From contig NW_024704743.1 in assembly GCF_018977255.1 (NCBI RefSeq), forward strand, positions 22,446,001 through 22,510,000: a stretch of DNA of 64,000 bases. The letters run 5' to 3'. The DNA comes from Callorhinchus milii. Lineage: Eukaryota. How positions within the stretch are numbered: position 1 is the stretch's first letter; each line of letters opens with the position of its first letter. The notes below the pieces were generated by a model. It saw nothing but the letters and a program-made list of their open reading frames with translations. It was not told the origin of the DNA and made no database searches. Positions 10,446 to 61,330 of this stretch are shown here, piece by piece. The position numbers and the translations under genes were made by a program.

Positions 10446-11323
10446 GGGGGTCGGTCCTGTCTCGTTCCCAACCGCTCGCTCGCTCGCCCGCTCGCTCGGC
10501 CCGAGCCCCCGGGGCCGGCCATTGGAAGAACGTGGCCAAACATCCCCCCCCACCAGACGCGCAGCGCACGCCCTTCGCCCCGGAGCGGCCGAGCGCTCCG
10601 CGTGTCGCAGCGCGGCCACCAATTTAGGTCAACGAAAAGAAACCTTGTAAGGAAAAGTTTACGCTCCCCCCACCCCCCCTCCCCCACACATACAGAAAGA
10701 GGTGTACATTTTATTTATTTTTTGTGTGGGGGGGAGGGGGGGGGGAGAGAGGGGAATGAGCCCCAAAAACCATCCCATTCACACGCAGCGAGGACAAAAA
10801 ACCCGCCCAATTACCCGCCCAAGGCTCTTTTTTTTTGGGGCGCGCGCGCGCGCGGGCGGGCGGGCGGTTTGTCGTCAGGCAGCAGCCAACCGCCCACACA
10901 AAAAAAAACCGCCCAATCGGGCGTGAACCCGCCCGCCCCGCCCCCCCGAAAACCTGGCGACGTTAGTGGTGGTTAGTGCGCAGGCGCGCCGGTTGCCCCT
11001 CCCCTCCCCGCCCCCCTCCCCCCCCCCCGGGCCGGGGCCGCCGTGTGAGCGCAGCGCTCAGTGTCCGGCGCGGAGTCAGGGACGTGTCTCCCTCTCTCTC
11101 TCTCTCTCTCTCCTCTCGGTGTGACTGTGTGTACAGTTACTCCCTCCTCCCCTCCCCTCCCCCCACAACAACAACAACAAACACCGCCCCCTCCCTCCCA
11201 CCCACCCACCCCGGGCCTCCCCCTCCCCCGGGCCTCCCCCCCCCCCGGGCCTCCCCCCCTCCCCCCGGGCCTCCCCCCCCCCCCCCCGGGCCCCCCCTTA
11301 ATAACCGTCACCAGTCACAGACC
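10440..11323 (+). promoter_or_regulatory. CpG-island, TATA-less promoter and 5'UTR of OSBPL10 with GC boxes, CCAAT boxes and an NRF1-type site
   Basis: Sharp CpG/GC enrichment against an AT-rich background. GGGCGG/CCGCCC repeats (about 10855-10945), CCAAT near 10619, 10807 and 10913, TGCGCAGGCGCG at 10977-10988. Confidence 0.85.
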
Positions 11324-11703
11324 ATGTTGGGCGCTGAGAAGGCTGGTCCGGGCGGCGGGGCCCCCCCCACCGCCGCCACCACCACCACCACCCTGTCTCC
11401 TGCCGGTAACGGGCACGGCAAGGCGAGCGTGAGAAGGCACTCCGCCTCCCCGGGGGAGCGGGCGGCACCGGCACCGGTACCGGTACCCGGGGCCGGCAAA
11501 GCGGGCAGCAACCGCAGCAGCGGCAGCCCCAGCCCCGGCTCCGGCTCAGGCTCAGGCTCCGGCTCCGGCTCAGCCCCCGGGAACATGGTGGAGGCGGCGA
11601 GGACACCGGGAGAGCAGCAGCAGCAGCAGCACCCGGAGGCTGGCAGAGTGGTGGAGGGTTTACTCAGCAAATACACCAACCTGATCCAGGGCTGGCAGAA
11701 CAG
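11324..11703 (+). CDS. OSBPL10: Oxysterol-binding protein-related protein 10, coding exon 1 (Gly/Ser/Thr/Gln low-complexity N-terminus plus start of PH domain, ...VEGLLSKYTNLIQGWQNR)
   Basis: ACCATG at 11321-11326 inside a CpG island. Translation ends EGLLSKYTNLIQGWQNR, matching recalled human ORP10 EGVLSKYTNLLQGWQNR. Donor AG|GTGAGG at 11703/11704, phase 2. Confidence 0.93.
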
Positions 11704-30800: not shown

Positions 30801-31714
30801 CAGAGTGAGGGAGTTAGGAGTTTGCATGTGTGATCTGAATGGCCTGTGAGGATAATGTGAAAAACAGATTATTTTAGAGGAAAGAGAAAATTAACTGCTC
30901 CCACTTCTAGACTTTGGGTCAATTACACATCATTATAATTACAATGAAACCTGTCTTCCAACAGCCTCTCAGGGGACTGGGCCAAAGTGGCCTTTATATA
31001 AGTTTGGTCTCCGAGTAAAGGCTTGTTGGTGTGTGACCGCATAATAAAGGGACTGTTCCAGGGTGGTTGTTAACTAAAAATTATGCAGTCAAACCGGTTC
31101 AATCGAGTTGAACTGGTTTGACTATAATTTTTAGTTCACAAGTTTGGTTCAGATGAAGAAGGCCTTTCGATCCATTTGAGCTCATCCTTCCAGAATACAC
31201 ACCCTACAATTTTCCCATCACAACATCAAGCTGTTTCTTAACAATAATAATTATTATTAACAGTACTGTGGGTAAGTAAATAATTTCATGGTCTCTGTCC
31301 TGTAATTGCCTTTTGCTACCCTGAACCTTTGTCCTCCCTTTCTGCCATGGCATATCTGAATATTATTTTCAATTTACATTTTCAATCTTCAGTTTACAAT
31401 CTTAAATATACCCTATAAAGACCCCTCTCAGATATTTTCAAGGCTCTCTTATACCTGTCTATTCCCTCTCCTTCATGTCTGCATGAAGTCTCTTATACCT
31501 GTCTATTCCTTCTATCTTCTATATCCCTCCCACACTCCCGTTGACTTCAACATCCAGCTTGGGTGCAAAACCCTTGAGTGTCCAGTGCCTTGGGATGTCT
31601 TCCCGATGTGGAAGATGCTATATAAATACAATTTGTAGTTGTCTACTTGGCATAGTTGGTGTACAAAATCAGTGGCTTCATATGCTCTTTCCACTTGTTG
31701 GTATGTCCAAAGAA

Positions 31715-32125
31715 AGGACATAAACTTGTATATGATAGCTTGATGCAGATCTGAAAGGAAGTTTAGGAAGAACCGCTTTATGCAGGGGATGTGAGAATGT
31801 GGAACTCCCTGCCAGGAACTGTGATTCAAGCAAAATGCCTCAATGTATTTAAAGGGAAACTTCATGCATACATGAAGGAGAGGGAATAGACAGGTATAAG
31901 AGAGACAATTAGAAATGTGGAGTATAATTTCTGGCACAGACTAGTTGGGCCAAATGGCCTATTTCTGTGTGGTATCATTTTGTGTATATTAGACAAGTGC
32001 ATACAGAAGAAACATATCCAAGCCTAAAGGGAAAGAGCAGGGAATTGGGGTTTAGAAGGAGCAAACATGGAAAACATGGGTCAGATGGCCTCCTGTTGTG
32101 CTGTACTTTTAAATGGTTCTATGAT
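31715..32125 (+). mobile_element. CR1-type LINE 3' fragments
   Basis: RKNRFMQG...MWNSLP..VI.A.....FKGKL motif and tgggccaaatggcct 3'UTR. Confidence 0.75.
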
Positions 32126-32671
32126 AGGCCATGAATTTTATCATCTCTTTTTCAGTCTTCCTCCTACTTTCATTCTCCATTGTTCTCACTCAGCATCTCC
32201 CACCTACTTCTACTGTAGTTTGTAGGGACAAGATTGCAATACTTCATCGTAGGGCACAAAGTTTGACTGACTAAGCTATATGAGGTGAAATGGCCAATCA
32301 CTTTCTTTGATCACGATCCTTTCTCTGAAAAACACCTAGTATTTTTTTTAAAAATGACTCAATACTCGGCTTCCTAGTAATAAGTAGCCAAATGCATACA
32401 GAAGAAGGGTATCAAAGGGTAAAGGGAAAGATCAGGGAATCGGGGTTTTGAATACCGGTAGGTTACTGTGCTAATATACCAAAGATGGATTTCTGTTGCA
32501 TGCTGCTATGGATGCAATTGTACAAATGTACTTAAGCTAGATTCTGGGTTTGCTGTGAAATATCTGATTGCGACTGATTGTAATTTATAAATGTGCTTTT
32601 CTAATTAACAATAATTGTTTTTAATCTTTTCTCTCCTGTTTTTATTTATGGATATTGGCCCTGTGACATAG

Positions 32672-32737
32672 TCATTTTGAACATATACAGGGTTATCTTA
32701 TGAAATATACCAACCTTGTGAGCGGATGGCAGTACCG
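32672..32737 (+). CDS. OSBPL10: Putative alternative cassette exon (66 nt, phase 2-2) encoding (S)HFEHIQGYLMKYTNLVSGWQY(R), an OSBPL11-type PH beta1-beta2 segment
   Basis: Acceptor TAG at 32669-32671 follows a pyrimidine tract and an AG-free zone (32541-32669). Donor CG|GTAGGT at 32737/32738. Length is a multiple of 3 and phases fit exon 1 and the 42179 exon. Peptide paralogous to the end of exon 1. Confidence 0.85.
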
Positions 32738-35700
32738 GTAGGTACATGCACAATATAATGACTGTTGATTGTCCTTCATGATCATGGCTTTCTGTCTTGA
32801 AGCTAGCTCCTTCATCTTTCATTTGCTACAATATATAGTATTTTATTCTATAGGTGGCATTACTGTAGAGATTATGAAATTAAATCTATGAGGCTGTAAA
32901 GCACTTACTCAGTTGATTTTTATGTGAAATGAGCCTTTTACATTTTATGCTTTCAAGATATAGGGATGTATGTGATAGACAGTGAGTTGTCTGCTTTATT
33001 CATTGTGTGGAAGGGGAATTTAGTTATGAAATCCTCAAGCTTTTGAATAAGTATCATTGGGCTCCTTGGGCCTTGCACTAAAAGCATCTAAGAGGAAAGA
33101 CTGACATGCTGTTCCCAGGCTTCTGCTAAGTCAGCCATTACTAAACACTTGAGAGTCCTTTGAATGATGTTTCTTCCATATACCAGTGTATGATTGAGAA
33201 CTTGGCACTGACCCACAGTTATACAGGTTTTTTTAAAAACTCTTAATAGACTATATAAAATAAACATTGGGGGTTCTTCCCCAAAATGGTTTTCAGATGA
33301 GATGCAAAGTACCAAAAAAAAATCATCGGCATTCATTTATCCATATTTTCAAGTATGTGTTCGGTTTAATATTTGGGAAGAAGAGTGACTTCCAAGTGGG
33401 TGTAATATGGAGGTATTGTGCAGCTCAACACACTCAACAACAACTTGCATTTATTTAATGCTCTTCACGCGGGGCAGCACCTCGGTGCGCTTCAGGGACT
33501 GGCATTATGTTTTGGCCCTAAAGAAAAATGACCAATTTATATCTTGGGGATTGTCCTCTTTTTAAATAGTCTCATGGAATCTTTATCATCCACCTGAACA
33601 GGCAGATGAGACCTTGATTTAACGCCCTGCCTAGTAGTTACAGACCTGAAAGGAACAGATACCTTAACACTTTAACGCTTTAACACTTTCCCACTTCCTT
33701 TCATTCTTTCTGGTGTGTGGCACTTGGAACCCTGAAAATGAAGGACAGTAACTCTGACAGTGCAGGTCCAGCCTAGACCGAGATGAAAGACCCAATGTGG
33801 GGCTTGAGCACACTCTTCTGAGTCTGAGGTGCAAGTACTACTAGCTGAGCCAGTCTGACACCAGGAATGCGTGAAACTGGCATCCGATGACTCATTCCAG
33901 CCCCTTGGAGAAGGAAGGCAGATTGGAGTTGGGTCAATAGCTGGAAAGCGTGGAAGGGTTGGGTGAGGAATTCTTGACAAGGTGCGTGATGATGGGAGGC
34001 ACTGTGCCAATGAATAGGGAGAGAGTGATGTCAGCCAGCAGGAGAGTGAGGAGGGGAAACTGGGCGGCTAGGAATGGTGTGTGGATGGGGTTCAAGGGAG
34101 CAGGTGGTTGGTTTCATGTGAGAGTTGAAGAAAAGCTCAGTGGAGGCCAGGGTGGCGAGTGGCAGAGGAGGTGGCAAAGGCAGCTGAGCGAATCTGCTTG
34201 AATACCTCGATAGTTTTCAGGCCTCAAATGTTTTTCATGAAAAATGTCGGGGTGAGTCACGCTCAGCTATAATTGTATACCTTCTCACACTGTAGTCAGT
34301 TACAGACCTGAAAGGAGCAGCTTACCTCCCTTCCCCACTTCCCTTCATTCTTACTGGGGTGTGGCATGTGGAACCCTGAAAAATAAGGAAGGCAAAAAAA
34401 AATTACTTGTGAGATCAAATGGGATTGTGCATTGTATTTGCTGCAGAGAACTACTTATGGTTCAACAATAATTGATAGTCTTACCCTAAGGATGATGTAG
34501 GGAATAAAAATTCTCAGTGACACAGTTGGGTGGTAATCTAAAGTAAATTACCGCAGTGGCTTGGATATGCAAATTGTACTTAAATTTTACTCTTGAAGTA
34601 CAATTTGCATATGCAAACAATGTGAGGTTTTTATCCAGTTGAACAGAACTGACTTTGTTCCTTCTAGTTCCATATTGCCTTCAATTCTGAATCCATAACA
34701 TCACAAGATTTTGTTGTGGAACTATTTAAATGTCTAGAATGCTAAGTGACCTTTGTTGAATTTGCACATTTTATCACACTTCTACTAAACATAATATTGG
34801 GATCAATTAAATAAAAAATTGGCTCACTCAATCCATGGCTGTTGTGGGACACTGCCATGCAGTTGCTGCCGCGTTTCGCCCACAAAATATACAGTCAATT
34901 CACTTTATACAGCTGACTTTAAAGATCCCATGGCATAATTCGGAAATAGAAGGGAGTTCCTCCCGGTTGTCCTGACAATCCTGACAAGTGCTGTGAAACA
35001 CTTTGCGACGTCTTGAAGTTGAGATAAGCGCTAAATCAAATGCAAGGATTATTATATTAAAATGTAATAGTACATTAAAATTTGGTCCATTAAATATACC
35101 CAGATTTGTGTGTGGTCCAAGATTTCAAGCTGCAAGTTGTGAATTAATGACTGGTTGGATTTTGCCATTGAGATCAGATTCAAGGGAGGAGAAGCCTATG
35201 TTTTGAATGTACTGCTAAATTGTCCCCATTGTTTCTCATTAGACGGTGTTCATTTAAATGTCAAATGGATTGAAAAATGTAGCTGCATATGTTAATGAAC
35301 CATCAAATGCTGATTTGCGACCTTCAATAGTTGAAGGCCATATTTCAGATAAATGAATGAGTGACTTTGTTTCCGTAGACGTTAGATCTTCAAGCAAGAA
35401 GCATGGTGTCTACTTTGTTTTGCATGTATGATCACTAAGTTAAGGTTCATGCAAAACACTCATGTTGTTGCCACATGGTTACTTGGCTATATAGAGCCAA
35501 TCATGTGATACTTTTATTGCATGAAGGAATAATTGGGATGTCTATTTTCAAAACTTTGTTCATATTTAGTTTTGAGGCTGAATTTCAGACAGGTAAGATT
35601 GGGAAAGTTGGTGGAATTTGAAGCAATCTTGTGGCATCAAACTATGTGTGCTATGGCTCATTTGGCCCGTCATGCTTGTGCTTAGAGTTGCTTTGGGTGG

Positions 35701-35929
35701 ATGTGCCTGTCCTTTCTTAAAATACTGTAATTTTCTTTTCCTTGCCTCCTCATTTTGCCTCAGGTGGATCAGATGAGATGTGGGGATTGAGAGAGCAGAG
35801 ATTATTTTCTTGTTGTTGTTACTGCTGGAATGTACTTATTATAACATAAAAGTTGCTGATTATACCAAAGATTGTGGGAAAGTGAATGGTATAAGAAGGA
35901 TAAAAAGCATTCAGAAGATTTTTGGGTAA

Positions 35930-36210
35930 GGCGTTAAACTGAGGTCCCGCCTACATGTCCGGCTGACGTTAAAGATCCCATGACATTATTCGAAAATAGA
36001 AGGGAGTTTCTCCCGGTTGCCCTGACAATCCCTTGAATAAAATTGGTTATTCACTCCATAGCTGTTTATGGGAAATGTACAAATTAACTATCACATTCAC
36101 CCTGAAATGCACATTGTCACATCACTTTGCAGTAAATCTTGTGAAGCACTTTTGAGGCTTCTCGATGTCGTGGTAAGGCACTATATGAAATGCAAACATT
36201 AGTATTATTT
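35930..36210 (+). mobile_element. Deu-domain SINE 3' two-thirds
   Basis: gcgttaaactgaggtccc...ttaaagatcccatgacattattcgaaaatagaagggagtttctcccggttgccctgac. Confidence 0.75.
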
Positions 36211-37124
36211 ATGTAGGTCAAGGAGTAGAAGATGGATTTTTACACAGATAATGTAATATTGAACCAGAAAACAAACATGTACACAATAAATAGTTCCCAT
36301 TAGCAGGGGAAAAGAATCGAAAGGAATTGGATGTAATTATTGATCATATACTGAAGGGTTCCAGTCAATGTGAAACGCTGTCAACAAAAAGGGCATTTGA
36401 CTCCATTCTAACCTTGTGGAAATCACTGTGCGCATGGTTGAAAATTCACGATAGGGTTTTGAATGGTCCACAAGGAGTAGGCTAAATTTATTTTTCCATT
36501 TCACATTATGTTCTGTAACACTGGGAGTGGTAACTAGATAATACTTGGTGCTCTGCAAATTGGAGTGTGGCTTTTATATGCAGTGGAGCTGAAACCTCCT
36601 GGCTCAAATGGCAGAGAAAATCTTTAATTGCATACGTTATATATTTTTATATATATATGTGTATGTTTAAATGCAGTGCCTCACAATGATTTACCCAAAT
36701 CATTTAACTACAGCGCTTTCTTAAATAATCTGGTTAAACTATATCGGTGTCTTTGTGCTACAATACTGATATTATGATGAATTCTGGTTAAAGATTGGGT
36801 CTTTGGAAGGTCTTTACCCTGCTGTATTATTGAAGAAGGTACCAGAAATAAAAGTTGGGAATATCTTACTGCAGGCAGCAGGATAATGCCTTAGGCTTAT
36901 AAATGGTCAGACTCCGCCACTGTTAAGCGCTCCAGGATACCACCCGGCGTGAAGGGCGCTACATAAATGCAAGTTGTTGTTGATTGTGACACTTGCACAT
37001 GGTAAATCTTGAATCGAACGCCACAAAGTGTCTCAAGTGGAAGTCACTATAAATGCAATCATTTTCAGTTAGCAAATATTTTGCTTGTGGCCCCAATGTG
37101 TAGATTCTGTCTACAGGGGAAATA

Positions 37125-37480
37125 TTAATAACAATCCCTGCATTTGATATAGTGCCTTACCACGTCTCCGAGAAGACTCGAAACACTTCACAGAATATAC
37201 TGCAAAGTGAAGTGACTGTATATTTTTTGCAAGAAACAGCAGCCAAATTCGCAAGGCAGTGTCCCACAAACAATTGTGGATTGGGTGACCCAATGATTTA
37301 ANTTTTTTTTAAAGAATTATTGCTCCCGGAAGAGCGATCCACTAATTGACTAACAACCGGGTTCCTATTTACTGCGAGGTAAACAGAGATGTGTGGAGTA
37401 AGGAAACTTGCCTAACATTTTGTTCTGCCCGGTTATCAAACCCAAGGCGAGTGCTCGAAGCACTAAGCTACACGACTTCT
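37125..37480 (-). mobile_element. SINE family A, long form
   Basis: Alignment by eye to the family. Confidence 0.87.
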
Positions 37481-39017
37481 TAAAGCAGATACTCCATTTT
37501 TCATATTTTACTAATGTATCCTGATTGGCCTAAGAACTTCCTAAATGCCATTCAACTGTCATTTCATAAACCAGTTAAAAGTGTGAAAATATGATTTATT
37601 TTATGTGATTATCTTTGGACTATTAAGATCACATTGATTGGTTATAACATTGGTCAAAAATGATGTTTTTTCCCCTCTCCTTAAATATGGATATCAAGTG
37701 CGTACATTTAGTGCATAATTTAGTGGACCTACAGCTAATTGAGTAAGGAATACAAAAAACATAGATTTTTGAGATTAGGTGGCACACTGGTTAGCAAACT
37801 GTACTTTTGTCCTGCTTCATGTCCCCCGCCCGCCCGCCCGCCCCACCATCGGCAGTCGGGCCGGGCCATCAGCATTTCTGCCTCCACCGTTTGGAACTCC
37901 TTCGGTTACCCTCCAAATCCCAACCCCCCATCTCAGGTCCAAATCCTTGACTGTCCAGCCTCTTGGGACATCCTCCCGACGTGAAAGGCGCTTTACAAAT
38001 GCAATTTGTTATTGCTGTTTCACTTTGGAGACATGAATCCGGTCCATACTGTGGGGATGAATGTCTTCTGTTACGCTTGCTGTAAGGTTCTGATTGTGTT
38101 GAATTTGAACAGTTTCAATCTGGTTTGTAGTAGGAACAGGTGTAGTAATTCAATTATGTGCATGCTGGCAGTCTCGTGCAAATAGACCGCAAGGATATGC
38201 GTGGGAAATGGAAAAGTCATTCTGCTACAATCAGGATATCTCCCCTCAAGTTGGAGCTGTCACATTGTTGTTGCAGAGTTGACGGAATTGTAGCTATGCT
38301 GATGGTTACAATAGATATTGAAGAACTGAAAACACTTAACATCGCTCACTCTATTATCCACCTCATACATTTCAAACGTGTGTAATTTACAGTACTTCAG
38401 AAAGTCTTTGTGGATCAGGGATCGTAAGAAAACAGGAATAGGAGGTAACCATTGAGCCTATCCTGTGTATTCTACCAGTTTGATACACCTCTTAGTTCTA
38501 ATGCTCCATTCACCACATCCCTCAATATCTCTACCACCCAAGTATCTATTTCAATTTTAAACATCCCATTAATTTTGGCAGAGCATTTATGGCCCTTTGT
38601 GTTAAGAAATGCTGTTTTTTTTTATTTACTCGACTACATTTTTTTCTTTTCTAAATAATTTAACAGATGTGTGTGTGGTGTTCACACAGGTTTTTACTTC
38701 TAAAATCGTTCTATTTTTATTTCAATGTCATTTTGTTACATTTGTTTATCTCTTTTTCATGTTCAATAAACTGATTGCTTTGGTTCATTTTTGCTAAGCC
38801 AAATTAATTCCTAGATATCCTGAAATAATCTGTCCTGCAACAAGGTTAATTGTTCTGACTGTTACCGCACCTGAGAAATTGCCAGAGTTTCTATGCCACA
38901 GATTATATAGATTATAAAAGAGATGATGCTCATTAAATTTCATCCATCTTATCTAAGGACCTGGGAGTTCCCCAAAAAAAATTCTTTTTTGATTTACTTC
39001 TTTTTGCAGAAGCCATA

Positions 39018-39345
39018 GTACAACAGCAACGACTTGCATTTATATAGCACCCTTCATTTTGACAGTGTCTCGGAGACGCTGAGCTGTGAGAACGGTGGCA
39101 CAGTCAAAGAGGAAGGGCTTCAGATGCGATCTGAAGACAGGCAAGGTGGGGGGAGTGAGGCAGGGAGTTCCAGAGTTCAGGGCATAGTGGCTGAAGGCAC
39201 AGGCACCAAAGGTGGAGCGTATAGAAGGACGGAGCCAGCTGAGCAAAATGGAGTGGAGTGTAAACAGGTCGAAGAGGTAGCACAGTGCTAGGACGTGAAT
39301 TGATTTATAAGTAAGTGTAAAGATCTTGAAATCAATCTGTTCTGC
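39018..39345 (-). mobile_element. L2 3' fragment
   Basis: IDFKIFTLTYKSIH...FRSHLKPFLF and tail. Confidence 0.8.
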
Positions 39346-40099
39346 AAATAGTAGTATCAATACAAATACACTATAGCATATAGTGTAAATCGTGACAATA
39401 TAGGGTACAACATGTTTCTTGTAGTTTGTTAAAGGGAGACTTGTAATACAACTAACATTGGTACTTGGTTCTAGGTCAAGAATGTTGCATTTTGCCTAAA
39501 ATACCAAAAATCTACTGTCAGAAAGAATAATCTGCAATTTATAAATTTCTCAAAGCATTTTACAAAATATAAATATTTTGAAATTAAAGTGAATGTTATA
39601 TAGGCAAATCTAACCGCCAACATGCACAAGCAAAGTCCCACAAACAATGAGGTGGAACAGCCACTTAATTTAAGTTAAATAGTAAAATTGGAAGCTGAGG
39701 AACATTAACCAGAAAAAATACTTATTTTTAAAACATCACCTACATCAAAAGATCTGGAAATAAACACTCACATATCATAGAGAATACTACATAGTATAAA
39801 CTTTGTAGTAATAAATTTAAAGTTATATAATCAGATTTTTAAAGCATTTAATTAAAATTACCTCCTTACAAACTCATTGATAGCATCTTGTCATGTTGAA
39901 CTACGGTTGCAATTGTGCATCGTACTCAACAACAACTTGCATTTATATAGCGCCCCTCATGCAGGGTAGCGTCCCAGAGCAACTCAAGTTGCAGATGAAT
40001 AATTCCAGCTCATGTTTTGTGTTTACTGTTCACAGTCCTGCAATTATATAAACACACACACAGAGATTAGAAAGAAAACAATTTAGTTGATTTATATTA

Positions 40100-40615
40100 T
40101 AATAACTTGCATTTGATAGAGCTTTTGATGTTGGGAAGATGTATCAAAGTGCTTCCCATATATACTGCAATGTGTTGTGACTGTACTTTATAGGAGAATG
40201 TAGCAGCTAATTTACACACAGCAGTGTCCCACATACAGCCACAAAGTGAATGACTCATTTTATTTGGGGGATTGTTTTACCAGGAACCTGGGAGAAACTC
40301 CCTTCTCTTTTTCAATGGTGCCATGGGATCTTTAACATCCAGCTTGACTGGCGGATGGAAACTCGGGTTAATATCTCAACTGAAGGGCCACATGCATTAT
40401 TGCACTATACGTAATTATCCCGTCAAAATAAATAATAATAATTTGATCACTCAATCCACGACTGTTTGTGGGACACTGCTGTGCGCAATTGGTTGCCACG
40501 TTTCGCCCAGAAAATATACAGTCAATTTACTTTACAGTATATTCTGTGAAGCGCTTTGAGAAGTCTCAAAAGACGTGACAAGGCACTATATCAAATGCAA
40601 GGATTATTATTATTA
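40100..40615. mobile_element. Deu-SINE fragment (minus, about 40100-40390) joined to a SINE-A 3' half (plus, about 40430-40615)
   Basis: Motif matches to the copies above. Confidence 0.75.
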
Positions 40616-41559
40616 TGCAAGAAATCTGTGTTATTGCATATGTAAGCTAACAGGATAATATTTTGATTTTGTTTCACTGCTGCTGCTATGGTCTGTTTTC
40701 CTTATGCTCGAATCCGGTTCCTTTGGTGCCCACTGTACCTTGCTGAAATGGTCATTTTTCATATTTGAGCCTTACCCGTAAGGGATGGCTACCTATTCAA
40801 CCATCACAGCCGATAGCATTCACTCAACTATTGTTGAAACGTGCACAACTTCCAGTGGTGTTCTCTCGACTCGCGAGCAGCAGCAACCCTGGCTGATTTT
40901 CCCCTCCTCAACCCAAAGTGCTGAGACCAATTGTAAAGGCTCTCCTGCTGCACCATCTGAGATCCATTAATGCCACAAACTGGATTTGAAACCTGGCGCC
41001 TTCCGTTCTTGATGGTATAGAGCTCACCGGGTGGTACTTTTAACCACTCAGCTATGAGAGTGCCACTTGCATCGGTTTTCAAAACTAAAAATTATATACA
41101 AACAGAATGATTACAATTTATGATTGAGTTTAATCCATTGCACACTTCCCACTGCAGTCTGTTTTCCAAGCTATTCACATCATATTCATGTGTCATCGTG
41201 AGAGTTCGTAGAGCTCATCATTCCTGAATTCCAATCAACCTGTTTCGCAACAGAATTTAAGATACTATGTGACTAATCGTGTGTAAGATTATCACTTCTG
41301 CCTCTGCGACTTTCAGTTCAAAGAAAGGCAGCAGGTCTACACCATGGGTACTAATTTTGATCGAATTTGTAAAGAGTTCAAACTTTCAGGACAAAATTAG
41401 ATCACCTGGTGATGGCCAAACAGAAAAGCATGGCCCTGCACCATTCTTCTCAGACATTAAGGATTAATGTACCTGCAGAGAAAACTCTGCCTGTGATTTT
41501 TTTCAAGCTGTGCTCAGAGTACTGTCATGAAATGTTGGTGTATGGCATAATGATGATGA

Positions 41560-41930
41560 TGATAATAATAATAATCCTTGCATTTCATATAGCACTATTT
41601 CACGTCTTCAAGACGTCTCAAAGTGCTTCACAGGATTATAGTGTAAAGTGTAAAGTGAATTGACTGCATATTTTGTGGGTGAACAAGGCAGCCAGTTGCG
41701 CACAGCAGTGTCCTACAAACAGTTGTGGGTATTATTAACTCTTGAAGGCATTATTACCCCTGAAAAAGCGATCCGACAATCGACTAACAACTGGGTTCCT
41801 ACTTACTGATAGGTAAACAGAGGCATATGGAGTAAGGAAACTTGCCCAACGTTTCACCCTGCCGGGTTTTGAACCCAGGTCTCCCACTTGTGAGGCGAGT
41901 GCTCTAACCACTGAGCTACAGGACTCCATA
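41560..41930 (-). mobile_element. SINE family A, long form
   Basis: Full head, core and tail. Confidence 0.9.
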
Positions 41931-42178
41931 ATGATCACCATTTCTTGTTATAAACACCAAACGAACGAATCGCTGTTAGCGAATAATGTGTGATAGATGC
42001 CATCGATTGCTAAATTTATTTTATTTGTAGAATTAAGTTCTTTGTCATCTATTTGTTATGGTTTGATATGCAAGATCTAACTGTGTTTATTACTGAAACT
42101 AGCAAATTGGTTATTTAATGTATATTACAGTATAACTAGTCAAGCAAATGATTAACATGAAATATTTTTGTGGTACAG

Positions 42179-42354
42179 GTATTTTGTTCTGAACTCGGAG
42201 TTGGGTGTGCTGCAGTACTTTGTAAACGAACAATGCAAAGGTCAGAAGCCAAGAGGAGTCCTGCATTTGTCTGGCGCCTTGATCTCACCCAGTGATGAAG
42301 TTTCCCACATGTTTGTAGTCCAAGCTGCCAATGGTGAACTGTATAAACTCCGAG
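42179..42354 (+). CDS. OSBPL10: OSBPL10 canonical exon 2, PH domain core ([58 protein letters not shown])
   Basis: Acceptor tacAG at 42177-78, donor G|GTATTG at 42354/55, 176 nt, phase 2 to 1. Strong match to ORP10/ORP11 PH domain. Confidence 0.96.
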
Positions 42355-44939
42355 GTATTGCAAACATGTCCTGCATTTTCATGACTGAAATAATGAATAT
42401 GTTTTGCTCTATTAGTAATTAGAGATACATTTAGAAAATATGAGCAGCTTCCCACATGGTTGATTTAATACAGACCTGACTTGGCATCTCTCCGGTTTGG
42501 GCCAAAACGTATGTAACTTTGTTGTTGAATGAGACGTGTACAATGTATATGTCTATATCAGTAGGTCAGAGAGTTGACCTAACGTGAAATCCATGCTTTC
42601 CTGCCACCTGAATGCACTCACTCCTATAATCAGGAAGGGAAAGAAAAGATAAGTTTGGTTGTCGCCTTATGGTGTTTGATCATGGAGTAACATAGGTAGT
42701 TATGAAGATATTGGCCTTGAAATAGCAAATTATGCTATTAATTACATTCACGTTTAATAGTGACTTGCACTTTTAATATAAAATGTGCTCTTTTATCCAG
42801 GAATGTATTTTACTGCTGAAGTACCAGAAATTAATTGCATATTATAATTTGTTCTGATTACCTGATCTGGAGTACCAAAAACACTCTCTGGGCTCCCCAA
42901 GCTTTGACACTTGTCAACTTGCGTCTAACGCTCTCTGGAATTAGGTAAGCAGGGAAAGAGTACGCATTACATTCTAATAAATATCTTGGGAATTTCAATG
43001 TGTAGGTGGGATGTATGGAACTCTGTTTAGTTTGGATATTCTTACGTGTGCATATCTGCATGTGTCAGAAACCTGGCTGACCGAAAAAAAGTATAATGAA
43101 TATTAAAAATTTAAGGCACTCCCATAATAAAATAGCAATTCTGCTATGTGCCACAATATTGTTGAGATGTTCAATCATTAAAATAGTGTGTGTAACACAA
43201 ATTGTTACAATACCGTTGCATTTTTAAAAAAAAGGCAATTTCTGACCTATACATAAAAATAGCCTGAGAAAGGAAGTTGTTAGATAACTTATTGCCTTCA
43301 CTGTTAGTTGGTAATTGCACATTTAGAACAATAACAGGATGTATTTCTGCAGATGTAAGTTACTAAATAGATCATCTCATTGGCTGTTATAAAACGTTTC
43401 AGTACAAGTATCTCAGTCATGTTTAAAAGGAACGAGATGAAGGCAAATGATAATGAGGTAAACATATTAGTGGTCATATTGAGATTCCTGTTGGGGGTAG
43501 GAGGGGGTTTTACTGACTAACTCATTCCAGTTGTTACTGCAATGTATTAATGTGCTTTTTTTAATATAGAGTGGTTGCATGTTGCTCTGTTCCTTCAGTT
43601 GCTAACAGTGAGGGTTTCAATCTTGGCTGGTGCATGTAATGCTTAGTCACTATTGTGATCCAGCCGATGTTAGCGGTTTACAGAGTATGATTTTTTTTCA
43701 GAACAGCTCGCTTACTGCCTACTCTTTCTGGAAGTGCTGCAAATAAGATATCTCCACGTGGCAGGAACCAAAATGTCCAAATTAGGGGAAAAATGAATAT
43801 TTCAAATGTTGCTAAAATTCTCATTTTAGAATAGATATGGCTTCTGCTCAAAAATGAACAATATTAAAAAAACACAGGAAATATGCAACCACTATGAAAA
43901 GATGGGGATAAATTTCAGATGTCATTTGGTGACCAGATGCTCTTTATTATATGTGCCTTTTTTGATATATCACGTTGTCAAGTTGGCTCAAAGTACAACA
44001 CAGGATTTTACTGTGAAATGTGGTAACTTTGTATTTGTAGACAAACATGGCAGTTAATTTACAAACAGTAACGTTTCACAAACAACCATGAAATGAGTGA
44101 CCATTTTTAAATTTAGCTGGATCATTGGCCAGGACACTGGAAGAAGCTCTTCTATGATCAGTCGAATCTATCATCCACTTGCTTAAAAATAGGTTTGTTT
44201 CTCGTTTATAAATGAGGAATGAAAAAAAAGTTGGTTTGAATTGGTGAAAAACAGCACTGCATAAACTCAGAATTAATTGCTGCTGTGTTACAAAATCAGT
44301 AAGCTCCTTCTATCTTAGCATTACAGGAATATACTGTGTAAGTCTATACTGTATTCACGATGTGTAAAAAATCAACTCAACACTCAGCTAACCAGATTTC
44401 AAGTATCCAGAATTCAGACTTATTNAAAAAAATCTTCGAGCCAAAAGCCCACCTGCGTGTAAAATTGATTTTTTTTCAATTTATAACTGTGACTTGCATT
44501 TATATAGCGCCCTTCACGCGGGTAGCGTCCCGGAGCGCTTTACAGTGGTGGAGTCGAATTTAAATATTAAGGAGGATTTATTTTAAGTAGATTTACAAGG
44601 TGTATTTTATTACACAGTATTTATTTTAAATGCATTAACACTTAAAAGGGAGATCTGGTCTGGCTAGGCAGACCAGATCTCCCTTTTAAATGGGTTTGCC
44701 AGGGGTTGGGTACATTTTTAATGTAAGTTTTAAAACGTTTAATATTAATAGTGTATTTTTATATATAAAACAACATTTATATTTTGTTCCAAGAGTGTGT
44801 GCACTGTGTCCTTGCATGTTGCAAGTCTTCATCTTATTTTATACTTTACCCATTGGATATCATGTTCAGTTTGGATCATTCGATGAATGGCTCTGGCCCT
44901 AATGGTGTACACTTATACACATTCCACCTCAAAACCAAA

Positions 44940-46150
44940 ACACCACCAACAGCAACTTGCACTTATATAGCGCCTTCCATGCAGGGTAGCGTCTTAGAGC
45001 GCTTAACAGTGGCGGAGCCTGACTCTGAGCCAGAGGGTTGGTGGCCGTAAGCACGGTTGAAGAGGAAAGTTTTCAGGCGGGACTTGAAAGGGAGGAGAGA
45101 GGGGGCAAGGTGGAGGGATTGAGGGAGAGTGTTCCAGAGTTTTGGGGTGTAGTGGCCGAAAGCACGACCTCCGATGGTAGGGTGGAGGGTCGAGCGGAAG
45201 TGCCAGATGGTAGATTGGGAAATGAGGAGGTCGGAGAGGTAGGGAGGTGCTAGGGAGTGAATGGATTTCAACACGAGAATGAGGATCTTGAAGCCGTTCC
45301 GTTCAGTGATGGGGAACCAGTGGAAACTGGCCAGAACTGGAGAGATGTGGGCATGGAATTTGGTCTGAGTTAGTGTGCGGGCAGCAGAGTTTTGAATAAA
45401 CTGGATCTTATGAATGTGGGAGCTGGGGAGACCGTTGCGGAGTGCGTTTAAGTAATCCAGCGTGGAGGTGAGAAATGCATGCACGGGGTTTTGGCTGCAT
45501 TTGGAGTAAGGTACGGTTGGAGGTGGACAATGTGCCGGAGGTGGATGAAGGTGGTCCTGGTCAGGGACCGGATGTGGGGGAGGAAGGACAGCTGGGGGTC
45601 AAACCGGACGCCTAGGTTGCACACTGGTTGGGAGAGTGTGAGGGAGAGCCCAGGGAGGTTAAGGGGTTCAGATCCACAGGAGTGAAGACGTTGACCGAAG
45701 CCAAGGAATATGGTTTCCGTCTTGTCCATATTCAGCTGCAGGAAGTTAAGTAGGACTCGAACCATGCGAGTGGGGTCCCACTAAGGTAGATGAAGGAGGA
45801 GAGCCAATGGAGGAAGATGGCGTAGTCGACTGTGTCGAACTCGGCAGAGAAAATCCAGGAGGAAGAGGAGACAGAGGAAGCCCTGTTCACAGATAGAGAG
45901 GACGTTGTTTGTGACTTTGACAAGCGCTGTCTCTGTGCTGTGGGCAGGGCGAAAACCAGACTGCAGGGGCTCGTGGAGGGAAAGGTGTGTCCGAAGTTGA
46001 CCTGCAACAACGTGTTCCAGGATTTTGCAAGGAGGATAGGTTGGAGATGGGATGGTAGTGGAGAGATTAGAGGGATCGATGGTGGTTTTTTTGAGGTGGA
46101 ATGTGATGACAGCGGTTTTCAGGGGGAGTGGAACAGAGCCTGAGGAGAGA
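44940..46150 (-). mobile_element. L2 LINE ORF2 (second subfamily tail), internally deleted
   Basis: QSGFRPAHSTETALVKVTN, NFLQLNMDKTE, VCNLGVRFDPQLSF, HISPVLASFHWFPI. Tail gacgctaccctgcatggaaggcgctatataagtgcaag(ttg)n. Confidence 0.92.
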
Positions 46151-46534
46151 GATATTGCAGAGTAAAGTGTTACATACTCCCTCCTCATTGTCCAATTTAA
46201 ATTTTCATTGAACTCAACAGGAAAATTTGATCAACATGTTATGTGAGTTTGATGTGAATCTTCTGTCTTGCATTCCTAGTTACCCCACAGTGAAGCTGCA
46301 TTTGGGTTTTTATTTTGAAATTAAGAAATGTGCTCAATTGGCCGCTGTGATTTTGTTGCTGATTTATAAATTCAAATCTTGTAATATGTATAAACCGAGA
46401 GGGAAATACATGCATTGAATCGTCTTATAACTGGTAGATAGGGATTGGGTGGCATTACACCTAAAAAGGTTACAATTAACTATTAAACCAACAGCATTAT
46501 TTCTGGAGCGAGCCTTGAATGGTTAATGTTTTTG

Positions 46535-48469: not shown

Positions 48470-48549
48470 CTGGAGATGCCAAAGAAAGACTCTACTGGGT
48501 GAACCAGCTTCAGGCTTCTGCGAAATACCACACTGAAAGTAATGTCAAG
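48470..48549 (+). CDS. OSBPL10: OSBPL10 canonical exon 3, PH C-terminal helix (AGDAKERLYWVNQLQASAKYHTESNVK)
   Basis: Acceptor ctgcAG at 48468-69, donor AAG|GTAAAA at 48549/50, 80 nt, phase 1 to 0. Contains the invariant PH helix Trp. Not in the ORF track. Confidence 0.95.
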
Positions 48550-49454: not shown

Positions 49455-49900
49455 GCACGATCACCTACAGTGTACTCCAAGGCTCTATCCTCGGCCCCCT
49501 TCTTTTCCTCATTTACATGCTCCATCTCGCAATATCATCCGCAGACACTGGGTCAACTTCCATATGACACTCAAATCTACTCCAGGTCCGCAGATGTTCT
49601 GTTGGCTTGTCTGGCAGACATCAGGGTACGGCTGAGCGCAAACTTCTTGTAACCCTGACTCCTGTCAACGNTTTTTGTCCTGCGGTCTGACCTCCTCACC
49701 CTCTCCGGCCTATCTCTCAGACTTACTGTACTTGTGTGTAACTTTGTAACTTAAGAGACAGATTCTATCCTCCGCTGTCCTTACCCCACATCCAATCCCC
49801 GTCCAGGATCACTTTCCTTCACCTCCGTCACATTGTCTGCTTCCGACCGTACCTCACATCCAATGCAGCCCAAACTCTCGTCCACGCTTTCGTCGCCTTG
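49455..49900 (+). mobile_element. L2 RT fragment
   Basis: VLQGSILGPLLFLIYML; AAQTLVHAF. Confidence 0.85.
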
Positions 49901-51525
49901 GGGGTGACAGGGTGGGGACTGGCTCCAAGGCAACATGTTTTGTTGGGCAGTGGAATGTTGGAATCGAGCCAGCCCTCTGGCAGTCTTGGCAATCCAGTTT
50001 CTGAGCCAGACTGGTCTGCAATCCTCCAGGGCACTGACTGCTAGTGACAGCGCAGTTAGCTTAGCTCTTGGAAGTTGGAAGGTTACAGGACTTGGAAGGG
50101 CAGACCAGTCACTGGGTGCAGGGTCTTTTCCCACTCAGTTCCCATTAACTGACTGAGGGGACATTTACTGCAGTATATGACTCGTATTATATTTATAAAA
50201 TTTGTTGATAATCCTGCATTGAGCTGAACTGTAGATCTTGTTTTAAAATAGCAATTTATTGAAGGCTGTGTGAAGTCGATTGAAACATTCCAGAAAAATG
50301 AAAAAAGCTCTGAGAGGAGCTTTGCCATTACCATTTTACATTTTCTGGCAGAGGTCAGCTATTTTAGTACTTGTTGAGATCCTATTTTCAATTTTAAAGG
50401 GAGAGAACAAATACCAGAAAATTCACCATGTTAGAAAAGTTGTGCAAGTTTGCCTATTGCTAAGTTTTTATATTTTTCTTTGTCAAATATTTGTCCAATT
50501 CCTTTCTAAAATACCGTGTTTGATAGGCCATTCCATTACTTAAAAAGTAGGAATACATTGAAAAAATTAGTTCATATTTCAGGTTACTTTCAGTAGATGT
50601 CAAGACATAAGTGTTTGATTTTTGGAGATTGAAAAATCATGTTGTAACATATGGAATATTCTGGTCTCAGTAATGTAGCAACTATAAAAAGTGCAATTAA
50701 AATAAATCTGGGAGCAGAACTGGAAGCAATTGTTAAACCATCTAGTTTGCTCTACTTAAATTGGAGAGCTCATATTTGTAGTAGTAGTAATAATAATAAT
50801 ACTTGCATTTGATATAGTGCCTTATCATGTCATCTAGGTGTCTCAAACCGCTTCACAGAATATACTGTAAAATGAATTGACTGTATCTTTTGGGGGTGAA
50901 ACGCGGCAGCCAATTGCCACAGCGGGTTGGCATTTAAAATTACGAGAGCGAACATGATGTTTTTTTCTATATTCGTAGCTCAAAGAGCATAACTTTCGGA
51001 TCCTCAAGAAAATGTAACCAGATATTTGATTCTAGAGAATCAACTAAATTAAGTACTATTTTTCCAAGTGTCTAAATCGTTACTTAACATTTTTTTAACA
51101 AATTTTAATTTTTACAACTGGATTATAAATTTTGCATATAGAGAGTGTTAAGAATAATTTACATTTGGAGGGTGCTTTTATGAGTACTGAAATACGAATA
51201 CCTTTAGAATATATTTTCCTTGGCAGGCTTGAAAGACTAGATTTAAAAAGACAATTTTTGGATGGAAGTTAGGCACTATTGTTTTACAAATGTTATTAGC
51301 ATGTAATAATAATAATAATCCGTGCATTTGATATAGCACTTTTCACGTCTTCTAGATGTCTCAAAGCACTTCACAGAATATATGATTTTGAGAAAACATG
51401 GTCAACTCATAACTTATGCTTCATCAAATGTGGAATTAACTTAGCTAAAAATAGGTTTGTTGAAATGGAGGCAGATGAACATTGAGGAACTGTTCAACGC
51501 TAATACCTTTTTTTGTTTGTTTTAG

Positions 51526-51717
51526 AGTACTCCATCTGTACGGGCTAGAAGTTTATCGTTACTGCCTCATGGGGTATCAAACTCAACATCTCCTGGTAGC
51601 CAAAAACATCTGTCATCCAGTGGACCAGGTATTGTCACCATTACCCATCACAAATCTCCAGCAACTGCCCGACGTGCCAAGAACCAGTGCCCAGAACGTC
51701 TTCTGGATGTCAAAGAG
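51526..51717 (+). CDS. OSBPL10: OSBPL10 canonical exon 4 (STPSVRARSLSLLPHGVSNSTSPGSQKHLSSSGPGIVTITHHKSPATARRAKNQCPERLLDVKE)
   Basis: Poly-T acceptor ttttAG at 51524-25, donor GAG|GTACGT at 51717/18, 192 nt, phase 0-0. The VTITHHKSPA.ARRAK motif is ORP10-specific as recalled and distinguishes it from ORP11. Confidence 0.95.
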
Positions 51718-51762
51718 GTACGTTCCAGAAACTTAACAAAGGATAGTTTTCTTTTGATGGTT

Positions 51763-55484: not shown

Positions 55485-55790
55485 TGGAGTCCTGTAGCTC
55501 AGTGGTTAGAGCACTTGCCTTGGGTTCAGTTCCAGGCAGGGCAAAACCTTGGACAAGTTTTCCTTACTCCACACGCCTAATAATAATCCCTCCAAAAAAC
55601 AAAACAATAATAAATTGGTCATTTTCAGTCCACGACTGTTTGTGGGACATTGCTGTGTGCAATTGGCTGCCACGTTTTGCCTATAAATATACAGTCAATT
55701 TACTTTGCAGCATATTCTGTGAAGCGCTTTGGGACGTCCAGAAGACGTGAAAAGCGGTATATCAAATGCAAGGATTATTATTATTATTAA
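55485..55790 (+). mobile_element. SINE family A, short form (anticodon arm partly deleted)
   Basis: As above. Confidence 0.9.
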
Positions 55791-55799
55791 ATCTTTCAA

Positions 55800-56760
55800 C
55801 AACTGACAACAACTTGCACTTGTATAGCATCTCTCACGAAGGATACCGTCCAAGAGTGCTTGACAGTGGCGGAGCACGACGCTTAGCTGTAGGGAGGTGG
55901 GAGATGATCGTAGGCATGGTTGAAGAGGAAGGTCTTCAGGCGCGATCTGAAGATGGGGGAAGGGGCATGCATGGTGGAGGTATAGAGGAAGTGGGCTCCA
56001 AAGTTTTGGGGGACTAGTGGCTGAAAGCATGGTCAACAATGGTGGAAGAGGGCATGAGGGACATGCCAAAGGCTTGGTAGACATGTAATATACCTGTCAC
56101 ACTTAAATTAGGTATATTAGGAGGCCGGAGCCAGTCGAGCGGAGACAGCAGGTAGTGGGTTGACGAGTAAGCAGGTCATACAGGTGGGGAGGAGCCAGGA
56201 CATGAAGGGATCTTAAAGTTGATCCATTCAGCGATAAGGAACCAGTGGAGCCTGGCCAGAACTGGTGTGATGGGGGTACAGAGTTTAGTACGGATGCGTA
56301 TGCAGGTGGCGGAGTTTTGGATCAGCTGGATCCTGTGTATGGTGGTGTTGGGGAGACTGGTAAAGAGGGCATTTGAGAAGTCGAGTCGGGAAATGATGAA
56401 CGCATGGACGAGTGTTTCGGTTGTGTCTGGGGAAAGGTACGGTCGGAGGCAGGCAATGTAGCGGAGGTGGAGGAAGGCGGTCCTGGTAAGGGACCGGATG
56501 TGGGGAAGGAAGGACAACTGGGTCTAACCTGACGCCTAGGTTACACACCGGTTCAGTGTCTTCCAAGGAGCTGAGGAGCAAAGGGATTTGGGAGTGCAGT
56601 CCGTGAAAGTGGAGTGGAGCTGTGGGTGACCATAGGTGAGGTCGAAGAGGTGGGATTTCAAGACGGATAGAGACAGGATGAGTTGGAGGATAGTGCAGGA
56701 AGTTCCAGGATTGGGGGCATTATGTTTGAAGGCTTAGCCATTGTTGGCGCATAGAGGGAC
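55800..56760 (-). mobile_element. L2 LINE ORF2 3' fragments
   Basis: ETLVHAFIISRLDFSN...PITPVLARLHWF...INFKI and the L2 tail near 55805-55860. Confidence 0.88.
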
Positions 56761-61122: not shown

Positions 61123-61330
61123 ATAATGAGCCAAGCCGAGGGACAACAGAGAAGTCTTGTGCAGTCGATAGAATCCCTCCCAACTTCTGGCCCAATGTCT
61201 GCATTGGATCAAGATTTGCTGCTTTTGAAAGCGACCTCAGCTGCTACTATGAGCTGTCTTGGTGAATGCCTGAATATTCTCCAGCAGAGTGTACAGCCAG
61301 CAGTCCAAAACAACAGAAGAACTCCATCAG
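61123..61330 (+). CDS. OSBPL10: OSBPL10 canonical exon 5, coiled-coil/dimerisation region ([58 protein letters not shown]...)
   Basis: Acceptor ttgttAG at 61121-22, donor G|GTTAGT at 61330/31, 208 nt, phase 0 to 1. [12 protein letters not shown] motif of ORP10/11. Confidence 0.95.

Follow-up and report, generated by a model that had tools for sequence, protein, structure and literature searches.

A candidate cassette exon in intron 1 of Callorhinchus milii OSBPL10 looks like the survivor of an ancestral splicing switch

The OSBPL10 locus and a segment in its first intron

The stretch of DNA that we analysed, hereafter the window, comprises 64,000 nucleotides of contig NW_024704743.1 of Callorhinchus milii (positions 22,446,001 to 22,510,000, forward strand) and contains exons 1-5 of an OSBPL10-like gene, as located by tblastn. 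The exons and splicing signals described here lie on the plus strand, and positions are given in window coordinates. The coding part of exon 1 (11324..11703) begins with an ATG at 11324 and ends in a phase 2 donor. Its last 65 nt (11639-11703), referred to as module A, encode the first strand, the loop, and the start of the second strand of a PH domain in an ancestral-type form, and 21 of the 22 residues are the same as in skate and shark OSBPL10. Exon 2 (42179..42354; 176 nt) supplies the remainder of strand β2 through β7, is common to both predicted isoforms, and is 88-95% identical to shark OSBPL10; by itself it gives a weak Pfam match to PH_8 (E 0.003, below the cut-off). The C-terminal helix of the PH domain is encoded by exon 3 (48470..48549), a tblastn match with its acceptor and donor present. 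Exon 4 (51526..51729) and exon 5 (61123..61320), the latter encoding a helical linker region, were found with tblastn at 81% and 80% identity, respectively, to Carcharodon OSBPL10, and their 3' ends are approximate. A feature of ORP10, according to the accessible text of PMC8264513, is its C-terminal ORD with the EQVSHHPP motif, and this domain lies beyond the window.

A tree of 30 rows built on exons 2-5 groups the gene with five OSBPL10 proteins of sharks and rays, to which it is sister (support 99/93), within a 13-row OSBPL10 clade (100/100); it leaves the relation of cyclostomes, OSBPL10, and OSBPL11 as a three-way split. By its sequence, the gene is the holocephalan OSBPL10, grouping apart from OSBPL11. 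The surrounding DNA is rich in repeats: C-rich tandem repeats lie just 5' of the start codon (11205-11297), a Gly-Ser hexamer repeat lies inside exon 1 (11535-11580), and introns 1-4 carry many short dispersed repeats. Broken reading frames at 44963-46230, 49750-50134, and 55695-56719 resemble pieces of LINE reverse transcriptases.

An earlier note on this DNA had proposed a hidden cassette exon in the 30-kb intron 1, and the 66-nt segment in question (32672..32737), lying between TAG and GTAGGT, is present in the sequence codon for codon, as is the in-frame TGA at 32664-66 that the note had pointed out. The reading frame behaves as proposed. Exon 1 ends in phase 2 at 11703 and the segment, being phase 2/2, shares this donor phase; skipping would create an Arg codon where exons 1 and 2 meet, and inclusion would create a Ser codon at the upstream junction and an Arg codon at the downstream one, preserving the frame. 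The segment thus has the canonical AG and GT and the frame-keeping length (66 nt, phase 2/2) of a cassette exon. Two repeat features lie upstream of it: a pair of 49-nt inverted repeats, 96% alike and about 460 nt apart (31444-31904), which resembles the ends of a small DNA transposon and lies 0.8 kb from the segment, and a 68-nt direct repeat (31990-32057 and 32385-32452).

The segment encodes PH strand β1, the loop, and the start of strand β2, in a form referred to here as module B. It was said to be of OSBPL11 type, and this holds: 16 of 21 residues are shared with exon 2 of OSBPL11 in the same genome, a 69-nt exon (G000:C6:10807144-10807212) that encodes the same module at the same place in the gene and likewise has phase 2/2. 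The N-terminal sequence of this paralogue, on contig C6, agrees with that of the named Callorhinchus milii OSBPL11 protein. The further proposal that the segment is a paralogue of the end of exon 1 stands in part, in that 10 of 21 residues are shared with module A, but OSBPL11 exon 2 is much closer, and so the segment is not a recent duplicate of exon 1. When 67 homologue N-termini and the exon 1 end of the paralogue were used as tblastn queries against intron 1, the segment was the only strong match (best E about 1e-8; next best 0.008). Judged on sequence, its resemblance to a PH module is not due to chance. Compared with solved structures, its peptide matches the ORP11 PH domain best (2d9x; E 2.2e-7) and FAPP1 next; the 22-residue peptide by itself matched no Pfam family.

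Coding history, splice signals, and RNA

Comparison of the 66-nt exon with its OSBPL11 counterpart in the same genome revealed 21 nucleotide differences, distributed 5/2/14 over codon positions 1/2/3. The corresponding values of pS and pN are 1.11 and 0.17, as compared to 0.91 and 0.19 for the constitutive PH exon. Silent sites are therefore saturated between the two exons, with 16 of 21 residues retained, and when 21 changes were placed at random 200,000 times, no trial kept both an open frame and at least 16 of 21 residues. Saturated silent sites combined with a conserved protein imply an old exon that, during most of its existence, was maintained as coding sequence by purifying selection. 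Of 16 sites in the exon that are the same in lamprey and OSBPL11, 1 deviates here, as compared to 10 of 48 such sites in exon 2. In a module tree of 22 columns, which is weak as such, the exon joins lamprey module B, hagfish, and OSBPL11 (SH-aLRT 97), and its end branch is short (0.075). Taken as a coding sequence, the segment is almost certainly an ancient exon homologous to OSBPL11 exon 2.

Two further observations bear on how the exon was used. Five codons that precede the single Met of the exon (His, Glu, Gly, Tyr, Leu) are conserved, and in four of them the residue has been kept despite silent changes; because these residues lie 5' of the only Met, their conservation implies that the exon was translated from an upstream exon. 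At four positions, three of them at its 5' end, the exon also differs from residues that are almost invariant in OSBPL11: an Asp is missing, Met is replaced by Phe, Asn by His, and Thr by Ser.

The signals flanking the exon, an intact AG and GT, a weak pyrimidine tract, and a zone free of AG, are compatible with a regulated exon. The AG-free zone upstream of the acceptor (32541..32669) spans 129 nt and is one of only 5 AG-to-AG gaps, among 2009 in intron 1, with a length of at least 128 nt. Branch-point-like words occur in it at 32601 and 32605, about 65-70 nt upstream of the exon, with a pyrimidine tract at about 32622-32649, and the zone may hold a distant branch point. Human exons preceded by AG-free zones of at least 100 nt are more often cassettes, as reported in the accessible text of PMC1431707. 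The acceptor itself is weak, with 50% pyrimidine at -25 to -4, as compared to 82% for the OSBPL11 exon and 45% for exon 2 of the same gene. Candidate regulatory words nearby were discarded as evidence for splicing. Four YCAY words downstream of the donor (32776..32822), which we take to be a possible Nova-type site, are not significant, as this count is matched in 11% of the 152 blocks of 200 nt sampled from the intron; a TGCATG at 32497 is one of 11 within the intron.

Available RNA was examined as the contigs of 4 of 12 runs (X1, X2, X8, and X9) over 32300-42600, an interval that excludes exon 1, 21 kb upstream. A 349-nt contig of run X9 covers 42175-42354, and its 73 preceding letters are known only as fitting nowhere in 32300-42600. 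The match begins 4 nt inside the acceptor, as the joint of exon 1 with exon 2 predicts: the start at 42175 fits skipping because the last four bases of exon 1 are identical to those at the end of the intron, whereas for the cassette only the last base is. The contig is thus an indirect sign of the skipping junction 11703-42179. None of the 15 contig joints listed, of 499, falls at the 66-nt exon, all of them arising from repeats, nor does any of the 24 loose contig ends listed, of 1778; repeats dominate these listings, and the blank at the exon weighs neither for nor against inclusion. Contigs of X8 and X9 give no cover in the bin 32644-32987, and one X1 contig runs unspliced over 32300-33530, across both borders of the exon, and represents either pre-mRNA or DNA. 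A ceiling on inclusion of 11-14% in X1 and X2, obtained from a rough sum of depths, was set aside because contig depth cannot rank parts of a gene. On balance, we lean towards the view that the 66-nt exon is a live minor cassette in this species.

Modules A and B across vertebrates

The distribution of the two modules was counted by pattern over 575 proteins, of which 188 are of OSBPL10 type and 197 of OSBPL11 type; these two counts exclude 11 lamprey rows and rows with no recognisable PH exon. The named rows include no OSBPL10 from gar, bichir, sturgeon, or coelacanth, and the OSBPL10 protein of C. milii is likewise absent. Among OSBPL10-type proteins, which are gene models rather than genome scans, 164 of 188 have module A only and 24 of 188 are truncated or have neither module. 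The conservation in other jawed vertebrates that the earlier note had put forward as a check did not appear in these annotations: module B was found in 0 of 188, including 0 of the 21 shark and ray rows that reach the region.

The OSBPL11-type proteins have the opposite arrangement. Module B is present in 178 of 197, an intact module A in none of the 197, and a single protein skips module B. What remains of module A is a stump, Trp-Gln-Tyr-Ser, seen before module B in 134 of 197. The two genes therefore differ in that OSBPL11 almost always includes the exon and has reduced module A to a stump, whereas chimaera OSBPL10 has an intact module A and an exon one codon shorter. They differ also in the form for which there is support, namely skipping (indirectly) in chimaera OSBPL10 and inclusion in the OSBPL11 models, with one skipping protein among the 197. 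That protein (P0464; CAH6792281.1, Osbpl11 of Phodopus roborovskii) omits exon 2 and joins the stump to the rest of β2; its PH domain would lack β1, and the model may be an artefact of annotation.

At the end of OSBPL11 exon 1 (G000:C6:10794800-10794822), the Trp-Gln-Tyr of the stump is unchanged from sharks to mammals, and the β1 that preceded it is gone. The idea that the stump packs on the PH domain received no support from an AlphaFold2 model of an OSBPL11 N-terminal fragment, in which the stump had a block pLDDT of 56 and no confident structure. Three proteins named sorting nexin-4 also sit inside OSBPL11 clusters, probably through a fused gene model.

Outside the jawed vertebrates, invertebrate relatives have one module. 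A single A-like module is present in representatives from tunicate, acorn worm, snail, barnacle, and horseshoe crab, and none of the 150 representatives listed from the 50%-identity library, many of them invertebrate, has two modules. Two hagfish models (P0180 and P0182; Eptatretus and Myxine) have a B-type module and no intact module A, a pattern that would be a loss of A independent of the one in OSBPL11.

The lamprey gene has both modules intact and in tandem. For each of Petromyzon marinus, Lampetra planeri, and Lethenteron reissneri, the gene models include an isoform X1 with A and B and an isoform X2, 25 amino acids shorter, with A only (XP_032807586.1 / XP_075922177.1; XP_078454029.1 / XP_078454030.1; XP_061410826.1 / XP_061410827.1); Lampetra fluviatilis is listed in the same 10-member cluster of gene models with the inclusion form only, so that the pair is annotated in 3 of 4 species. 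Both isoforms contain a full PH domain according to Pfam; in X1 it begins at residue 60, within module B, and in X2 at residue 35, within module A. An AlphaFold2 model of X1 folds module B as the β1-β2 pair (strands 59-66 and 73-81) and leaves module A as coil (pLDDT below 50); the underlying alignment had 33 rows, mostly of B type, which favours B as the folded pair. These lamprey isoforms, which are named OSBPL11, have the layout predicted for the chimaera gene: module A lies intact in exon 1, and module B, downstream of it, is optional. The differences are that the lamprey module B exon has 25 codons and the chimaera exon 22, that the isoform pair is annotated in lamprey and only predicted in the chimaera, and that the tree, with its three-way split, does not assign the lamprey gene to OSBPL10 or to OSBPL11.

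A possible history of the switch and its consequences

The presence of A+B isoforms in lamprey, a single module in invertebrates, module B with a stump of A in OSBPL11, and no module B in OSBPL10 leads to the reading of a split ancestral switch. Comparative data of this kind make it most likely that an ancestral vertebrate cassette switch was divided between ORP10 and ORP11, with the chimaera gene keeping both halves. On the vertebrate stem, before lampreys and jawed vertebrates separated, the end of exon 1 of a single ORP10/11 gene would have been duplicated into a small downstream exon. With the exon skipped, module A of exon 1 would supply β1 and the start of β2; with the exon included, module B, now beside the rest of β2, would build the domain and leave module A as a floppy N-terminal tail. 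After duplication of the gene, OSBPL11 would have fixed inclusion, its module A decaying to a stump, and OSBPL10 would have fixed skipping in most lineages. The chimaera OSBPL10 would have kept both modules, the exon still being included in a minority of transcripts or in particular tissues, and inclusion would give an ORP10 body an ORP11-type membrane wedge. The account as a whole, from ancestral duplication and partition to retention and present minority or tissue-specific inclusion in the chimaera, is the one that we moderately favour; within it, we infer the order of events, the present-day inclusion, and the effects on lipid binding and localisation.

The most serious rival is that the exon, long functional as a cassette over the greater part of its history, is now an unspliced relic, silenced so recently that decay has not begun. 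Holocephalans evolve slowly, and in such a genome a dead exon could look intact for some time. Such a late death would fit the complete lack of module B in 188 OSBPL10 annotations, the weak acceptor, the four departures from the OSBPL11 consensus with three at the 5' end, and the RNA sign, indirect as it is, that favours the skipping form. Against it, neither splice dinucleotide has been lost, and the frame and the AG-free zone are undamaged. About 38 constrained sites in the exon have 0 to 1 damaging change, which limits neutral drift since any silencing to about 0.08-0.13 per site or less, as compared to saturated silent sites; if the exon is dead, it therefore died late, and silencing is confined to a small late interval. 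We consider a recent relic somewhat unlikely.

A promoter inside intron 1 would make the modules alternative rather than tandem, with the 66-nt exon spliced to some other first exon. The idea draws on OSBPL11, many of whose models begin with the homologous exon or immediately ahead of it; module B appears without the stump, by pattern, in 44 of 197 rows, including isoform X4 of the OSBPL11 of this species. The start Met of those models, however, is Phe here, the only Met of the exon falls inside β1, and the in-frame TGA stops any read-in from upstream. Moreover, the neighbourhood of the exon has no second strong match to a homologue and no CpG-rich bin, and the lamprey inclusion models join the module B exon to exon 1. 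An internal promoter is accordingly improbable. A later arrival of the segment in the intron as a piece of OSBPL11, through gene conversion, segmental copying, or retro-insertion, such that it never served OSBPL10 as an exon, is a reading that would explain why the exon is closer to OSBPL11 than to anything in OSBPL10 and falls among the OSBPL11 and hagfish rows rather than apart from them in the module tree (few columns), but it is largely refuted and very improbable, given the saturated silent sites and the conserved protein, the gene position and phase in common with OSBPL11 and lamprey, the single genome match of the 501-nt region around the exon, which is itself, and the unrelated flanks, the only significant blastn alignment of the two 2-kb neighbourhoods being 44 nt within the exon.

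Returning to the split ancestral switch, its form can be compared with known cases of splicing evolution. The partition of ancestral splice alternatives between duplicates is known, with 11 cases described in the accessible text of Abascal et al. (2015, PMC4494069; see also PMC4417111). As in the cases of MARVELD3, CACNA1C/D, and FYN in the former, homologous alternatives reside here in separate paralogues, and the ancestral choice persists in some lineages. Both alternatives occur in one outgroup gene, the lamprey X1/X2 pair (annotation, 3 of 4 species), and each paralogue has a different one, A in OSBPL10 and B in OSBPL11 (protein models), which is the pattern of isoform separation. The cases of Abascal et al. 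are, however, mutually exclusive exons; in the lamprey models module A, as part of exon 1, stays in the inclusion form, and the ORP10/11 module is an added cassette that displaces an upstream copy retained in the protein. The same distinction applies to the tandem exon duplication-derived substitutions, of which 236 events were catalogued from human annotation (PMC8373072, PMC9741552, in the text accessible): these also involve an ancient duplicated coding exon that offers a homologous part of a domain, but they swap one region for another, and the ORP10/11 cassette adds a copy.

The OSBP genes receive no mention in the main text of PMC4494069, and human OSBPL10 and OSBPL11 do not occur in the main texts of PMC8373072 and PMC9741552 or in one supplementary file of the latter. 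An OSBP-family phylogeny places the split of ORP9 from ORP10/11 early in animals, and its accessible text mentions neither exons nor lampreys nor sharks (PMC10243569). We found no published description of the 66-nt exon or the lamprey switch in a search that covered literature outside subscription papers; supplementary exon tables may bear on the matter. The partition of splice alternatives is thus known, and the displacing-cassette form is a variant that we did not find in print. The 66-nt exon has the look of a remnant of an ancestral splicing switch, still present in lamprey gene models, whose halves other jawed vertebrates appear to have divided between OSBPL10 and OSBPL11. It would add a case from the base of the vertebrates to a short list of splice-isoform separations, with an unusual mechanism in which an insertion displaces strands in place of a mutually exclusive swap.

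A stronger version, which we regard as doubtful, holds that the chimaera gene is a living intermediate that makes ORP10-type and ORP11-type wedges by tissue-regulated splicing, the two differing in affinity for Golgi and endosomal PI4P. If true, human ORP10 and ORP11 would represent splice isoforms of a common ancestor that have become frozen, part of the distinction between them would rest on 22 residues, and inclusion would displace strands of a domain that stay in the protein as a spare tail. That distinction is posed as an open question in the accessible text of PMC11302984, which attributes a partial trans-Golgi localisation of ORP11 to its PH domain. For the human ORP10 PH domain, PI4P-dependent membrane binding has been measured, and the domain directs ORP10 to PI4P-positive endosomes (PMC8624802, accessible text); it has also been reported at the Golgi (PMC8264513).

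The proposal in the earlier note that splicing swaps the lipid pocket is overstated, as modules A and B have the same residues at the Lys, Tyr, Thr-Asn-Leu, Gly-Trp-Gln, and Arg positions. The modules differ at the wedge tip (Ile-Gln versus Val-Ser), at two positions of β1, and at the residue before the Arg. In FAPP1, as described in the accessible text of PMC2854595, Lys7 positions the 4-phosphate, residues 9-16 make up a wedge inserted into the membrane, and Arg18 contributes positive charge. Lys7, Trp8, the wedge from Thr9 to residue 16, and Arg18 align with both modules, so that A and B resemble the wedges of the FAPP1/CERT/OSBP type; both keep the Lys and the Arg and vary at the tip and three neighbouring positions. 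Because Lys and Arg are kept in both, any functional change from inclusion would probably be modest, and a change of ligand is not predicted. Inclusion would thus probably alter the strength or the context of membrane binding and leave the ligand the same. An isoform pair that differs only in the β1-β2 module, as in lamprey and probably in the chimaera, provides a clean test of the contribution of the module, for which the expected effect is small.
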